Origin: Moniliella sp. 'wahieum'
Lineage: Eukaryota
Length of the DNA: 20,000 nucleotides
Direction: 5' to 3'
Assembly: GCA_003971905.1 (NCBI GenBank)
Contig: RSEE01000117.1
Span: 172,593-192,592, forward strand
Position numbers and translations under genes: made by a program
Notes under the pieces: model-generated
Databases searched by the model: none
Seen by the model: only the letters and a program-made list of their open reading frames with translations
What the model was told of the DNA's origin: nothing
Shown: positions 8,863 through 15,970 of the stretch, piece after piece
Layout of the letters: each line of letters starts with the position of its first letter
How positions within the stretch are numbered: the first letter of the stretch is position 1

Positions 8863-8968
8863 TGCCACGTGGCCCGGCAGCAGCCAGGCACGGGCGCTGT
8901 GTGGACCGTCGGCCTGCGGGGGACGTTGGCGCTGCGCTGCGCCCCCCTCTGAAACAGGTGCCACGTCA
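8863..8968 (+). promoter_or_regulatory. Two UPRE-like bZIP sites: TGCCACGTGG (8863-8872) and TGCCACGTCA (8959-8968, reverse complement TGACGTGGCA)
   Basis: Both motifs are visible about 190 and 90 nt upstream of the HAC1-like ATG. They match the XBP1/Hac1/Cib1-type UPRE core (TGACGTGG / TGCCACGT). Confidence 0.6.
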
Positions 8969-9053
8969 CCGCCTTTCTCTTTCCCCGCCCTTTTCTTTTT
9001 TTCTCGCCACCGCCACCGCCACCGCCACCGCCATCGTCACTCCGCCCACCCCC

Positions 9054-10473
9054 ATGTCCGCGGTGGCCACCGACACAGACGGGCTTGCTGCGCTGGCTTC
9101 GGCCTCGGCCTCGGCTTCTTCCTCACCCTCTGCTTCGGCCTCTCCCGAAGCCGGCCGGGCACGCAAGCGGCCCACTCCGCCTCTGGTCCCCGACGATCCC
9201 GCCCAGACCACCCTGACCGCGGGGAGCAAACGGCCGAAGGTGCTTACGCCGGACCGGCAGGCGCGCTTGGAGGCGCGGCAGGCGCGCAACCGCCTGTCGG
9301 CCCAGGCCAGCCGCGACAAGAAGAAGAACTATGTGTCGCAGCTGGAGCGGCAGCACGCGCAGTTGTCGCAGGACCAGGCTGAGCTGTGGCACAAGCTGCA
9401 GGACTACGAGACTCGGTTCCACACGATTGGCGTGCTGCTTGGCGCGAACGCTACGGACGACGCACGGCACACGTTGCGTCAGGTAGCGGCCTATGTCGCT
9501 GCCGTCGGCCAGCCAGGTCCGGTACCCCTCGATCCGACCGTTCCCGTCCCCGTTCCCGCTGCTGCTCCCGCTTCCGCTCCCGCTCCCGAAGGCGAGAAGC
9601 TCGTCTCCACCAGACCCACCAGCACCAGCCCCACAGCCTCCCCTCTTTCCTCCTCACATCTACCCTCGCCAATCCCACCACGCACGTCTTGCCCGCGTGT
9701 GGGCCAGCCCCGGCTCGTCAGCTGCGTCCAGCACGGCCCCCGCGCCACCTGCGACGCCAGCATCGGCATCGGCACCAGCACCACCAGCATCGGACCGGGA
9801 TAAGGCTGACCGCGACGTGCCCTGCGCTGCTTCGGCCGGGCCCGAGACGTCGGAATTGAGCGCTCGCCTTCCTGCAGTGAAGGCGATCTCCCGCTGCGAG
9901 CGCTCTTCCCTCGCCCTCGACGCCCGTGCCGCTGCGGCCCACGACGCCGTCCTGCTCAGCCACCACTTTGCCCACCCCGCTTGACCTCGCGTCGTTGTTC
10001 CCCGCGGCGCTAGCCCCGACTCTGGTCCCCCTCCCGTCCCGGCCCCAGCTTCGGCACCAGCTCCAGCCTCATCCGACACCGCCAACGTGCTTCTCCCGCC
10101 CGAGACGTTGGCCGCGCTCATGCTGGACGTGGAGGACGCGGAGCAGGAACCATGCCCGGCCACCACGACGGACACTGGAGGCTCCCTGCCCTCGTCGCAG
10201 CACACTTGGTCTTGCCCAGGACCGGACGCGCAGCCGTGGATCGACACGTGGCTCATGCCGCTCGAGAGCTTGCCTGGCTCGCCGGTGGGTTGCGACGCGT
10301 CGGTGCCGTTGCCGTTGCCGTTGCCGTTGCCGCTTGGGTGGGACGCGTCGGTGCCGTGGCTGCCTGCGTGGGACGCGGACGCGTGTGCGGATGCGTGTGC
10401 TGACCCCCCGCTAGACCCACACCTTTACCCAGAGCTGGATGGGCCCGTGGGCGCGAGCGAGGGCGCGCTGTAG
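9054..10473 (+). CDS. HAC1: bZIP transcription factor, HAC1/XBP1/Cib1/Hxl1 unfolded-protein-response regulator; frameshifted in this sequence
   Basis: bZIP basic region RQARLEARQARNRLSAQASRDKKKNYVSQLE with a leucine zipper, resembling Ustilago Cib1. RLPAV is encoded across CCTGCAGT (compare Hac1 HPA motif) inside an Ire1-type stem-loop. The uninduced frame stops at TGA 9982-9984. An acidic Trp/Asp/Leu-rich activation-like tail ends at TAG 10471-10473. Confidence 0.88.
9852..9909 (+). other. Ire1 bifurcated stem-loop with predicted unconventional intron 9875-9893 (19 nt)
   Basis: TCGCCTTC-[CTG^CAGT]-GAAGGCGA (8-bp stem, 7-nt loop) and CTC-[CCG^CTGC]-GAG (3-bp stem, 7-nt loop). These are closed by GGAA..GAGCG / CGCTC-TTCC. 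Both loops fit the CNG^CNGN consensus. Confidence 0.88.
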
Positions 10474-11274
10474 CTCTGCCCGCTTGGCCCTGGTTGCGAG
10501 TAGTGGTTAGGGCTTGTATTGTTGTTTGTTTGATGTTGTTCGTACATCGTTGTTGGGGGTGTGTCGTAGTGGATTCGGTGGAGGTGTCGCAGCAGACAGC
10601 GTTGGTTACACGTTTAATTAAACGTTAAACGACAGGCGCACCCGGGCGGAACGCAGACACGCTGTTCCGCTCGAGTAGCGCTGCGGGTTAGGGGACGGAC
10701 TGGTCACGCGTCACGCGTCCCTCTGCAGGCTCAAGTGACTAGTGACTAGTGACTGGGCACACGCCCCGCGGCAGCACCAGGGCGCCCTCGCGCCGGCCGC
10801 TCCCCTGCACGGCATGGCGCCTGTGTGGGTGCAGGCCATCGCGTCACACACTGGCCTTGTGCGGCCGGCGGTGGGTAGGGTTGCGAGCTGTGTTACGTAA
10901 GACACAAGGCGGGGGACACTGGCGCGGTGGGGGGTATTGTGTGGGCACGGAGTGAGGGGCGGGGGATGGGTGACGGGGTGTCACCGGTCAGAGCTCCCCG
11001 CGCGGCCGCATCTCGTCGGCGTTTGGGCGCGTCGTCGTCTCTTCCAGGTGGTTGCCGTCGCCATCGCCAGAGCGCTCTCCACCACCGCCACGGCCGTCCC
11101 CGCCACCGCCTCCGCCGTCCCCGCCACCACCGTCCCCACCACCGCCACCACCGCCACCACCACCACCCCTACCGCGCACCTGGCTGCCTGTCTGCTCTCC
11201 TCCCTGCCCCCCCCTGCGCCAGCCCATGAGCGCGCTGCCGTAGACTGTGTGATCGCTGATCACTTTGTGCCGCC

Positions 11275-12501
11275 ATGGCCCAGCCGCCCGCCTACCCCTT
11301 CTCCCTCTTCCCGCCTGCCGCCACGGGCACTGGCCCCGGCACCACCAACGCCACCCCCGCCCCCAACACCATGTACCAGCCGCCCTCGAGCCAGTGGCCC
11401 TCGGCCGCCGCAGTCCCACCCGACTTTGCCTCGGTCCTGTCGGGTCTCTCGGCCGGCATGCCTTCGTCCCAGCTCCAGCCGCAGCAAGCGCAACACAGCA
11501 AGCGCAACAGCAGCAGCAACAACAACAACAACAACTGCAACAGCAACAACAACAACAGCAACAACACAACAACAACACAACAACCGCAACAGCAGACACT
11601 CCCCAACCCCGCCCTGTTTGCCGCCATGATGGGGCTCCCGCCCGGCACCCCTTGCGCCCCACCAGCAGCAGCTGCTTCTCCAGCAGCTGCGCCAGCGCCA
11701 GCAGCAGCAGGCGGCGTTTGCGCCTGGCCTCGGCACGCCTGCTGCGACGATGGGCATGCCCGGGATGCCGACGGCGTCCAGCATGCCTTCTGCTCCGGGC
11801 GCAGGTGCGGGCGCGATGCATGCCACGCCGACGGTCAATCCGGCGCAGATGCTGGGCTCGCCCTGGGCTGCCGCCGCGCAGCAGCAGCAGCAACAGCAAC
11901 AGCAGCAGCTGCACGCGTCGCAGGCCGTAACCGCCGGCCAGTCGCCCTCGCCTGCTGCGCACCGCACCCCGCAGCCCGCGCCGGCCCAGGCCCAGGCCCA
12001 GCTGCCCACGCCGCAGCGCCAGCGCCAGTCGTTCGCCTCCAACCTCGCCGCGAGCAACATGTCCTTCCTGGCGCAGCGGGCGGGCACGGCCGCCGCCCCG
12101 GGCCCAGGCCCAGGCCATCCCAGTGCCAATGCCAATCCCAATGCGAATCCCAATGCGAATCCCAATCCCAACAATGCCACCGCCGCGGCCGCCGCGTCGT
12201 CCGACCCGAGCTCCAATCCGTTTGCTGCGCTCTCGAGCCAGCTCGGCACTCCGACCCAGCAACAGGCCACGCCGAGCCAGACGCCCGCGCTGCCTCTGGG
12301 CCAGAACAGCACGCCGTTGGCCGCTTGGCTTTCCAACAGCGCTAACTTACAGCGAGCGGTACGTCTCCTCCTTCTGTCTCTGTCTTGTCTTTCTCCCCGC
12401 CGCCCACTGACACTGACGTTGGCCGGCATGCTCAGCAGGCGCAAACGCAGGCACAGGCGCTGGCCCAAGCCCAAGCCCAAGCCCAAGCCCAGGCTCAAGC
12501 C

Positions 12502-12533
<32 letters not shown>

Positions 12534-13878
12534 AGCGCAAGCACAAGCTCAGGCGCAAGCCCAGGCACATGCGCAAGCTCAGGCCCAGTCGTCCCAACCC
12601 ACGGCCTCTCCTATGCTCTCGCAGTTCGCCCAGGCGCAGGCGCAGCCCGCGGCGGCCGCGGCACAGATGACACCGCAGGCGCAGCCGCAGCCTGCGCCGT
12701 CGCAAGCACCGGGCAGGTCGCCGGCCATGACGGATACGGCGGCGGTGGCGATGCAGCAGTACAACATGCTGTATGCGCGCATGATGGAGCTCAACCAGCA
12801 AATTTCGCGCGAACGCGACCAGCTCAACCAGGCCAAGACCAATGAGGAGCGCGGCCAGATGGAGCGTCTGATCGCAGATCGGATGAATGTGCTGTCGACG
12901 TTGCGTGCGCAGGTGATGCAGTACCACACGCTGGCTCGCCAGGCGCAAGCGCAAGCGCAAGCGCAAGCGCAAGCGCAAGCGCAGGTCCAGGCGCAAGCGC
13001 AGGCTCAGGCGCAAGCGCAAGCACAGGCCCAAGCGCAGGGCCAAACGCCTGGCCCACTGGGCCAGGGAACTCCGCCCCAGGGCATGCTCGCCTCCATGCC
13101 GGCGCCGACGCCGGCGCAGCAACAGCAGATCATGGCCGCGACGCTGCAGGCGACACGGCAGAGCCTGACGGAGGAGCGTTTCAAGCACATCACGTCCGAA
13201 CTGTTGGCCAAGCGCGGCTCGGCGTGGCCGGCAGATCCGCGCGTGAACAATGTGCCGGTCAACTTGTTCCGTCTGTACCAGACTGTGGCCGGGTACAACG
13301 GTTCGGATGCGGTGAGTGCGGCGGACGCGTGGCCGAGCGTAGCGATGGCCTTGGACCTCGTCCCGCGCCCACCGGGCCCACCTACCGTCCCGCCCGCCGC
13401 GCGCCACGTCGCACCCGCCCTGCTCCAGCTCTACACGCAGTACGTCAAGCCGTTCGAGGAGGCGTGGAAGATGGTCGTGCGAAAGCACCAGATGTTGCAG
13501 GCGGCGCGACTGCAGCAGCAGGCTGCGAGCCAGGCTGGCCAGGTGGGCCAGGTGGGGCCGACGGTCGGAATCAGTTCCCCGGCCGCGCCGCCTGCCTCTG
13601 AGCCGGCTCCTGCTCCGCCGTCGGTACAGGCTCCGGCTCCGGCTCAGGTACAGCCACAACCACAGCCACAGCCTCAGCCTCCAACCCAGGCCTCGCAACC
13701 GTTTGCCCAGCTGGCCAACTTGTCGCAAATCACGCCCCAGCAGCTGGCTTCGATGAGCATCACGCCGGAGCAGTTCAATGCCTTGCTGAGGAACGCTCAG
13801 CAAACTGCCTTGGCTCAGCAGCAGCAGCAGCAGCACACAGCAACAGCAACAGCAACAGCAACACAACAGCAGCAACAA

Positions 13879-13912
<34 letters not shown>

Positions 13913-15970
13913 GGCAACACCAATCACAACCGCCACAACAGCAGCAACATCTGCCACCACAGCAACAGCAACAGCAACAGCATCCGCAACAGCAACAGCA
14001 ACAGCGACACCAGCCCCCGCCAAACCAGCAGCGGCCGCCCAGCCAGGCCCACCCGCAGGCTCAGTCTTCGCCGTTTGCGCAAGGACTTGCGCCGCAGCCT
14101 CCTGCTCCTGCTCCGTCCATGTCCCAGTCGTCTCAGCCCATGCGCCAGCCTGTGCCCGCCCCCGGTTTGGCGCTCAATGGCGCGCCTGGCACCGTCGGAG
14201 CGCCGGGAGCACCGGGGGCACCAGGGGCAGCGAGGCCTGGACCCGGCGGGACGGCTGCACCGGGTGCGCCCGGTGCGCCGTCGGCACTGACGATTACGCC
14301 CGAGATGGTGGAGGAAGGACGTCGGGCGACGTTGATGGTGGAAGAGGCGGCGCAGCGGGACGCGGAAGCGCGTCCGTTCCAACCCATCTCGGACATGCCC
14401 GAGTCGGAAAAGATCCAGGTGGTAGCTTCGCTGAGCCAGCTGCGGCCACTGACAATGCTAGCGCGCGCGCTGCAGCGCGTTCTGTGGGCGCTGGACCAGC
14501 GCGGACTGGCTAGCAAGCAGTTGGCTCAGGTCCTGCTGCTGTTGCGCGAACAGATTCGCCTCGCGCCCCAGGGCATCTTTATCATCCGCTACGCCGACCT
14601 CGAGCCGCGCATGCTCCAGCTCCGCCGCATCATCCAGGTCGTCCGCGCCAAGGCGCCCGAGCACGTCCAGCACATCACCACCAGCGTCGGCGCCGCGCTC
14701 GGCTTCCCGCCGTCGCAGTCGCAGCCACCCGCGGCGCCGCCGCCAGCGTCCTCGCAGCCGCCGAACGCGGCGGGACAGGCTGTTCCGGCGCAGCTGCCGG
14801 CCGCGCAGGCGCAGGCGGCTCAGGCACAGGCCCAAGCGCAAGCCCGCGCGCAGGCGCAGGCGCGCGCACAAGCGCAAGCACAGGCCCAAGCGCAAGTGCA
14901 GGCCCAGGCACAGCAGGCCAAGCACAGGCACAGGCCAAAGCACACGCCCAGCGCAGGCGCAGGCAGCACAGCCGGCGGACAGTGGCACGGCACGCCGCCC
15001 CTGGCCGCGAAGCGGGCGTCGCTCGAGGCGAGCCGGGCAAGCCCGTGTCGAAGCGCGGGCGTAACCAGGCCGCCGCCACGCCCGCCATCGACCTCGGCCT
15101 CGACCTCGACCCCGGGCCGTCGATGCTGCCTCCGGCCGCGCCGCTGTCGGCGCCGGACGATGCCGGTGCGTGGCAAGCGCGCCGCGCGGTGCGCGGCCGC
15201 GGCAGCGGGAAACGTGGTGCCAGAGCCACGCTTCGTCCCACTCGGTCTCGTCGATGCCCAGCCCGGCGCTCGCCTCTGCTGCCTCCCCCACGTTTTCCTC
15301 CTCCTCCACCCTGTCGGGCATCAAGGCGTCCGTGGCGTGCCGGACTGGCGGCGGCACAGGCGGCGCTGCGACAGCCGTCCAACCTCTCCCCAAGGACCCA
15401 GCCGCCATGGTCCCCTTTGCCCTGGCCAGCCTGGGCCAGACCAAGGACCAACCGCCTGCGCCGTGGGAGCCCACTTCGCTCGGCACGCTGGTGGGCCAGC
15501 TGGACGCGGGGGGCAACGGCCCCACTGGCCCAACGGTCCCAGCGGTCCCAGCGGTCCTAATGGCCCAACGCCAGTGGCGGCAGCAGCGCCTCGGCCCCCA
15601 CTTTGGCCGACGACCCGACCGCCGCGCGCGCCGCTGCCGACGCAGCGGCCGCACGCGAGATTGAGATTATGAATTACCTGACGTTTGAAGCGGATGTGGT
15701 GATCTCGAGCCCGAGGCGGGCGGGGACGAGTCGGTGTCGGTGCATGCGACCCCGGCGTTGGAAGCGGCGGCGGGCATGCCCCGCCCAGGCTCCCGTCCTA
15801 GCACCACCGACTTTCTCGCTGCTGGCTTGGATTTGAGTTCGTCCGACGAAGGTGAGGCCTCGCCCTTTGACCCGCCGCCCGGCCCGCTCCGACACGCTAA
15901 ACCCCCCGGCGACGCGTGGTGGGATACGAACCATGTCCTGCATGGCGAGCATTTGGCCCTCCTCCCCTGA
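11275..15970 (+). CDS. Large Q/QA-rich nuclear protein with ARID (BRIGHT) domain and a possible Gal11/Med15-like helical domain; one intron (12359-12435), several frameshifts
   Basis: ARID signature at about 13165-13467: F...L.KRG..P.V....[20 protein letters not shown]....WPSVA..L....[15 protein letters not shown]. PolyQ and (QA)n tracts, a helical domain at about 14293-14652, and an acidic C-terminus ending ...[11 protein letters not shown] at 15970. The start ATG at 11275 is in a CCGCCATGG context. Confidence 0.8.
12359..12435 (+). other. Spliceosomal intron of the ARID gene (77 nt) with NAGNAG acceptor
   Basis: GTACGT donor, CT-rich tract, tandem CTGAC branch motifs, CTCAG/CAG acceptor. 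The phase-0 splice joins ...NLQRA to QAQTQAQ... Confidence 0.88.
12436..12588 (+). repeat. Coding (CARGCN)n hexamer repeat encoding poly-(QA); further QA tracts at about 12940-13038 and 14805-14915, and polyQ at about 13816-14003
   Basis: Visible caagcccaggctcaggct... and cagcaacag... tracts in frame with the ARID ORF. Confidence 0.9.

Follow-up and report, generated by a model that had tools for sequence, protein, structure and literature searches.

A HAC1/cib1 gene of Moniliella sp. 'wahieum' is predicted to carry a compact unconventional intron, removed by Ire1 at positions 9875–9893 of a 20,000-nt stretch of contig RSEE01000117.1 (this whole stretch is referred to as the window). The presence of the intron was well supported by sequence evidence, and we put the probability that the transcript is spliced at these ends, or within one base of them, at about 80%. 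What the sequences themselves show is the family of the gene, its structure, the conservation of that structure with covariation and a single 3' site that fits.

Twin hairpin in a HAC1/cib1 gene

The candidate Ire1 substrate lay at 9852–9909 and consisted of the following features.

9864–9886 (+): hairpin 1, with an 8-bp stem (9864–9871/9879–9886), the 7-nt loop CTGCAGT (9872–9878) and a predicted Ire1 cut after G9874
9875–9893 (+): predicted unconventional intron, given by the spacing of the two predicted cuts; its 19 nt in the assembly are not divisible by 3
9888–9900 (+): hairpin 2, with the stem 9889–9890/9898–9899, the 7-nt loop CCGCTGC (9891–9897) and a predicted cut after G9893
9858–9863 (+): 5' strand of the basal stem, pairing with 9900–9905; all five core pairs are kept in the four sequences aligned below
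9900–9905 (+): 3' strand of the basal stem, within the start of the 3' exon, corresponding to GUGC[U/A] of the relatives at this place

An initial annotation of this DNA had reported the loops CTG^CAGT (9872–9878) and CCG^CTGC (9891–9897) with 19 nt between the cuts, and both were read directly in the sequence. The two hairpins on a common basal stem, which it also described, were located as well, with stems of 8, 2–3 and 5–6 bp. The basal stem was formed by 9859–9863 with 9900–9904, plus the pair 9858/9905, and enclosed both hairpins. Both loops fitted CNG^CNGN, in which positions −3, −1 and +3 relative to the cut are C, G and G; this loop consensus is quoted in a figure legend of PMC8071499. 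As assembled, all 15 structural pairs and both 7-nt loops were intact.

In the mechanism we propose, the short basal stem would keep the hairpins adjacent, with a 7-nt CNG^CNGN loop exposed on either one. Under endoplasmic reticulum stress, both loops would be cut by Ire1, behind G9874 and behind G9893, and the exons would then be joined by tRNA ligase. The loss of 19 nt (possibly 20 in the real genome) would shift the frame, and the short unspliced tail (stop at 9982–9984) would be swapped for a long C-terminus running from LPAASAL to the acidic tail at 10080–10470. We infer that the transcript is cut and religated, that this depends on stress and that the reading frame is continuous.

The open reading frame (ORF) starting at ATG 9054 encoded a bZIP_1 Pfam domain at residues 68–119 (E = 5.7e-09). 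A full HMMER search of 1.84 billion representatives returned 22 proteins at E ≤ 0.001, the top one with E = 1.6e-13 and 37% identity. Eight of the matches were looked up, and all six that had source names were bZIP proteins of Ustilaginomycotina. The named relatives were Tilletiaria anomala (the best match, E = 1.6e-13), Exobasidium rhododendri, Acaromyces ingoldii, Malassezia psittaci and the UMAG_11782 cluster of Ustilago maydis. UMAG_11782 is cib1 of U. maydis, and XP_011390112.1 is labelled cib1s, the spliced form, in a figure legend of PMC8071499. The basic region RLEARQARNRLSAQASRDKKK of the window protein aligned with the basic regions of the relatives. The peptide encoded across the 5' site was SARLPAV, and a match to (A)RLPA[AV] was found in seven of the ten aligned relatives and in all four related DNA loci. 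As we read it, the window carries the gene orthologous to HAC1/cib1 in a smut-related, GC-rich basidiomycete of Ustilaginomycotina-like affinity. The bZIP_1 domain and the nearest relatives, U. maydis Cib1 among them, bore out the initial assignment to a basidiomycete-type HAC1.

The architecture was rare in the window. Of 574 CNGCNGN motifs (287 per strand), six had a stem of at least 5 bp, and only the 9872–9878 loop reached 8 bp. A strict scan (hairpin 1 ≥ 8 bp, hairpin 2 ≥ 2 bp, basal stem ≥ 5 bp, spacing ≤ 30 nt) returned the 9872/9891 site as its single match, and none of 300 dinucleotide shuffles contained a match. The same single site was found in a looser scan (hairpin 1 ≥ 6 bp, spacing ≤ 70 nt), in which 8 of 300 shuffles gave at least one match. 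With a spacing of up to 400 nt, one extra match appeared at 12685/12892.

This extra twin hairpin (12685–12691 and 12892–12898, + strand) had a 7-bp stem on the loop CCGCAGC, a partner 207 nt away and a 5-bp basal stem, and sat within the ORF 12346–15672, which carries ARID and Med15_fungi matches. It is probably due to chance, since 21 of 100 shuffles yielded at least one match at the loose setting.

Conserved scaffold in metagenome relatives

Metagenome contigs were scanned with an alignment of HAC1 proteins, which yielded four loci (L001–L004). In all four, the RLPA motif lay on an 8-bp hairpin 1 with a CWGCAGY loop. The second loop was found 47 nt downstream in L003 and L004 and 380 nt downstream in L001, and these distances correspond to the intron lengths. 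With the introns removed, the ORFs of these three loci comprised 199, 214 and 533 aa, compared with 121, 129 and 411 aa unspliced. The spliced ORFs of L001, L003 and L004 ended in an acidic stretch with a YxDVD-type motif.

The scaffold was aligned for four sequences, namely the window, L001, L003 and L004. Their common stems measured 5 bp at the base, 8 bp in hairpin 1 and 2 bp in hairpin 2. All 58 alignment cells held standard pairs, and four pairs were changed on both sides. Neither the observed pairing nor the covariation score was matched by any of 500 shuffles, and sliding the partners by 1–3 columns left 38–53% of the cells paired. In hairpin 1, the eight pairs were kept in all four sequences, with two of them changed on both sides; stem and loop of the window were identical to those of L003. 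In the basal stem, a G-C pair in the window stood against A-U in the relatives, which is one of the four compensatory changes. In hairpin 2, the window had UC/GA against CC/GG in the relatives, i.e., U-A for C-G by script count. The stem of hairpin 2 was only 2 bp long in L001, L003 and L004, too.

Four candidate 3' cuts were present in the window (after 9893, 9931, 9934 and 10004), and only 9893 retained both the basal stem and hairpin 2. In the register of the relatives, this site kept six of the seven basal-stem positions and three of the four hairpin-2 positions. The predicted spliced junction reads LPAASAL in the window and LPAAGA in the relatives, and LPAADAL of U. maydis Cib1s is likely to span its own splice junction. 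Over their first 10 positions, the 3' exons of L001, L003 and L004 were identical, because this segment contributes to the basal stem, to hairpin 2 and to loop 2.

The fourth locus, L002 (1061–1176; compared with L001 at 490–880), showed a different arrangement. Here the 3' terminus of the HAC1 intron (380 nt) was joined directly to its 5' start, and the join fell inside a shared hexamer at the predicted Ire1 cuts. L002 is from the same species as L001. The sequence fits an excised intron that was circularised and caught in an environmental assembly, and PMC6456296 mentions circular HAC1 introns in yeast. A tandem duplication is a possible explanation of the join. In the relative with the 380-nt intron, the excised intron may survive in circular form in environmental RNA or DNA.

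Folding, reading frames and rival splice sites

Several observations weigh against the predicted intron, the first group of them concerning the structure. The covariation came from four sequences only. MAFFT misplaced the hairpin-2 columns of the window, and two pairs were therefore left out of the 58 cells and counted by script in a register that we chose ourselves. The stem of hairpin 2 has just 2–3 bp in the window, the third pair (9888/9900) being possible if the basal stem yields. The minimum-energy fold of the 58-nt stretch was not the twin hairpin, which reached −19.0 to −20.2 kcal/mol; instead, the palindrome GAGCGCTC lengthened the basal stem and the 3' site was buried. Both loops were open in only 0.7% of the ensemble. 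An Rfam search at E ≤ 10 over 9000–10700 gave two weak, irrelevant matches (WLE3 and naRNA4) and none related to HAC1.

The folding check that the initial annotation had suggested came out divided: the stretch folded better than its shuffles (−26.2 kcal/mol, z = −2.96; none of 200 shuffles was equally good), but the preferred fold was one other than the twin hairpin. The minimum-energy folds of the relatives likewise lacked hairpin 2, and the unfavourable fold of the window therefore weighs little either way. Single-sequence folding is a poor judge of an Ire1 substrate here. A twin hairpin that is also the thermodynamically preferred fold is a supporting, not a defining, feature of substrates of the HAC1/XBP1/Cib1 type.

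The second group of observations concerns the reading frames. These are listed below, each frame being given as the remainder of its codon start positions divided by three (pos%3); GC3 is the GC content at third codon positions.

9054–9803 (+): N-terminal HAC1/Cib1 frame, pos%3 = 0, from ATG 9054 to TAA 9801–9803, with the bZIP at about 9255–9410
9793–9874 (+): end of the 5' exon, pos%3 = 1, encoding ..GPETSELSARLP plus G; tblastn of the relatives P0001 and P0004 matches this frame
9894–10045 (+): 3' exon after predicted splicing, pos%3 = 2, reading AASALPSPSTPVPL...; favoured by a GC3 of 0.85–0.9 over 9930–10049
9982–9984 (+): TGA ending the unspliced reading, 36 residues past the 5' site as assembled
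10080–10473 (+): acidic C-terminal tail, pos%3 = 1, with the stop at 10471–10473 and a GC3 of 0.9–0.95

Two breaks in these frames count against the intron. The frame of the bZIP domain stopped at 9801–9803, short of the splice site, which lies in the frame pos%3 = 1. Further downstream, the spliced frame as assembled entered Arg-rich nonsense and not the acidic tail. The initial annotation had described a stop at 9982–9984 that shares the frame of the 5' site, a spliced product reading PAASALPSPSTPVPLRP..LDLASLF and a tail in another frame, all of which we found in the sequence as assembled. The upstream break was overlooked in it. Matches of the relatives in tblastn extended in the frame pos%3 = 0 to about 9660–9710, and a GC3 of 0.95–1.0 favoured this frame up to about 9790. 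The TAA at 9801–9803 is probably the artefact of an indel at about 9790–9840, as judged from GC3, which gives rough break intervals only, the signal being blurred by Pro/Ala/Ser-rich low complexity. At least one further indel correction, somewhere in about 9985–10075, is needed to lead the spliced frame into the acidic tail. A missing C near 10000 had been proposed for this purpose and is possible; the need for an extra indel before the tail stood, and its position could be narrowed to that interval only.

On both sides of the predicted intron, the peptides resembled those of the relatives. The motif GPETSELSARLP at the end of the 5' exon matched relatives such as Tilletiaria (TEGSESSARLPAV). 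The 3' exon opened with A-A-x-A in the window, as with AAGA in the relatives and, by inference, also with LPAADA in U. maydis Cib1s. By eye, the tail segments GGSLPSS and PWIDTWLMPLES resembled NGSSI and AGWLxxL of the relatives.

Two other sources of the frame changes were considered and rejected. Candidate GT-AG introns were shorter than about 105 nt and had poor 5' sites by eye (GTCTTG, GTCAGC and GTCCAG). A second unconventional intron starting at 10004 had no downstream CNGNNGN partner in 10020–10100, again by eye.

The GT-AG introns were set aside in favour of assembly indels after the neighbouring aspartate aminotransferase gene (about 1245–2538, − strand) had shown nine frame breaks. 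Its product was identical to the nearest homologue (P0033) at 373 of 436 residues. In a frameshift-aware alignment, it needed nine frame breaks in about 1294 nt against P0033 and ten against a second homologue, mostly single missing bases, which amounts to a rate of about one indel per 144 nt. The HAC1 coding sequence was broken at least twice outside the intron. Since so well-conserved a gene 7 kb away is broken nine times, the frame breaks are a property of the assembly. For the Moniliella genome, this means that the HAC1 locus needs polishing before it is annotated or used.

At such an indel rate, the exact intron length is insecure and could be 20 nt instead of 19. The initial annotation had claimed that the Ire1 substrate is complete and its intron very short; orthology, the shared scaffold and the failure of the rival sites speak for the substrate, whereas the exact figure of 19 nt is the part that did not hold firmly. 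Both word-indexed protein searches were negative: the N-terminal 249 aa had no match among 8000 candidates, probably as the search was swamped by low-complexity words, and the acidic tail had none among 5922 candidates when compared with longer proteins. Consequently, no close HAC1 relative was available to decide between the two lengths. If the same sites are used and the true intron has 20 nt, a base was lost in assembly, most likely from the 2-nt linker at 9887–9888. The frame breaks of the aminotransferase, mostly single missing bases, make such a loss conceivable. In the DNA-checked relatives, the intron lengths (47, 47 and 380 nt) leave a remainder of 2 when divided by 3, whereas the 19 nt of the window leave 1, a point against the length as assembled. 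Tilletiaria, the nearest named relative, also looks like a 20-nt case, judging from its protein alone. With the extra base, the unspliced frame would read LRALF where the 3' exon begins, similar to QRAL, QRVH and QRVL in the unspliced readings of the relatives, but the conserved RNA strand accounts for this likeness, which adds no evidence of its own. All pairs and both loops are intact, so that only the linker could have lost a base, about 3 positions × 1/144. Moreover, intron length modulo 3 varies in fungi, with 19 nt in Candida albicans and 252 nt in Saccharomyces cerevisiae given in PMC6222058. We regard a true length of 20 nt as rather unlikely, though it is the strongest of the competing explanations.

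Much less probable is a real 5' hairpin combined with a 3' cut further downstream, at CCG^CTGC 9929–9935 (57 nt), CTG^CGGC 9932–9938 (60 nt) or CCG^CGGC 10002–10008 (130 nt). All three sites fit the loop consensus, and the relatives carry long introns on the same scaffold. The 130-nt option even opens with A-A-x-A (AALA), and by frame arithmetic a single indel correction would take it to the tail. However, the flanking stems of these sites were 0–1 bp long, and at most three of the seven basal-stem and two of the four hairpin-2 positions were kept, the pairs being scattered. The 57-nt option preserves the frame and still reaches the TGA at 9982–9984. It had been named in the initial annotation as the site whose use would overturn the 19-nt intron, and it fails the scaffold of the relatives.

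That the HAC1 locus is a decayed pseudogene, with real frame breaks and relic hairpins, is the least credible explanation: although the coding sequence as assembled is broken at least twice outside the intron, the housekeeping aminotransferase is broken nine times despite its high identity, none of the 15 structural pairs is lost, neither loop is damaged, compensatory changes specific to the lineage are seen, and GC3 remains high in the inferred frames.

Promoter motifs, gene models and known Ire1 introns

Two copies of a further motif were located upstream of the gene.

8863–8870 (+): TGCCACGT motif, candidate unfolded protein response element (UPRE), 184 nt upstream of the ATG
8959–8966 (+): second TGCCACGT motif, 88 nt upstream of the ATG

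These were the only two matches to TGCCACGT on both strands of the window, and both lay in the same orientation less than 200 nt upstream of the HAC1 ATG. Two matches per 20 kb are not above chance (57 of 200 shuffles gave at least two), and what is of note is that both are in one promoter. In PMC4836707, TGCCACGT is described as the core of the Cib1-bound UPRE consensus of U. maydis and as present in the cib1 promoter, a feature that the two promoters thus have in common. The motif was absent from the contig DNA of all four related loci. The pair may represent autoregulatory sites. The neighbouring genes of HAC1, the aspartate aminotransferase and an ARID/Med15-like protein, fit a smut-related basidiomycete.

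The gene models P0001, P0005, P0007 and P0002 of relatives continue past the RLPA site and end in nonsense rich in Arg and Lys, which suggests that these models omit the unconventional intron. Gene callers mis-model Ustilaginomycotina-type HAC1 genes, since several public models end in such nonsense. The peptide footprints would be consistent with introns of about 20 nt (Tilletiaria), 44, 44 and 56 nt, with the qualification that footprints cannot tell spliced from unspliced models and that the models of Acaromyces and U. maydis are ambiguous or spliced. The combination of basal stem, 8-bp hairpin and 2-bp hairpin offers a worked scaffold for finding unconventional introns in genes of this type.

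Ire1 splicing of HAC1 and XBP1 is textbook biology. By the comparisons made here, the predicted window intron belongs to the HAC1/XBP1/Cib1 class of Ire1 substrates, and its mechanism is not new. The U. maydis cib1 intron is given as 65 nt in the initial annotation. Short basidiomycete HAC1 introns may already be listed in the survey by Hooks and Griffiths-Jones (2011).

Among known systems, U. maydis cib1 is of the same bZIP family and the same subphylum-level group as the window gene. It has RLPA at the 5' site, and the junctions would share LPAA-x-AL (LPAADAL in Cib1s, LPAASAL in the window). Protein identity was about 32% over the aligned part, the comparison being one of proteins. The metagenome loci L001–L004 agree with the window in the scaffold, in the loop consensus, in the A-A-x-A opening of the 3' exon and in the codon phase of the 5' cut, which falls behind the first base of the Ala codon in LPA. 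L001, L003 and L004 differ from the window in their introns of 380, 47 and 47 nt, in the basal A-U pair instead of G-C and in hairpin 2 (CC/GG instead of UC/GA). The nearest named protein of L003 and L004 was that of Malassezia psittaci, with 43–44% identity.

Cryptococcus neoformans HXL1 is also a basidiomycete bZIP mRNA and, according to PMC3154848, is spliced by Ire1 at CAG-type loop borders. Its intron has 56 nt, and its bZIP is described there as very divergent from Hac1/Xbp1. HXL1 was not among the 22 HMMER matches of the window protein. The same paper gives 20 nt for Aspergillus fumigatus and 19 nt for C. albicans, in agreement with the lengths given in the initial annotation (56 nt in Cryptococcus and 19–20 nt in Candida and filamentous ascomycetes).

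Whether a single, unchanging three-helix scaffold carries Ustilaginomycotina-type HAC1/cib1 introns that range from 19 nt (the lineage of the window) through 47 to 380 nt is, in our view, an evenly balanced question. If it does, the window holds the shortest basidiomycete Ire1 intron, equal to the fungal minimum reported so far (C. albicans, 19 nt), and is the sole member among the four DNA-checked ones whose intron is not 2 mod 3, its lineage having altered the frame of the unspliced tail. For Saccharomycotina, PMC6222058 gives a HAC1 intron range of 19 to 848 nt; the lengths found here indicate that basidiomycetes, too, range from minimal to long Ire1 introns. Positions 9854–9909 make up a 56-nt natural minimal substrate, which is a candidate for a direct Ire1 assay.

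In intron length, the window resembles C. albicans HAC1 (19 nt) and hacA/hac1 of Aspergillus and Trichoderma (20 nt), the short lengths in Candida, Aspergillus and Trichoderma being taken from PMC3154848 and PMC6222058. In these genes, as in the window, hairpin 2 begins almost directly behind the 3' strand of hairpin 1, giving a compact twin hairpin. They are ascomycete genes, and the likeness lies in size and general plan only.

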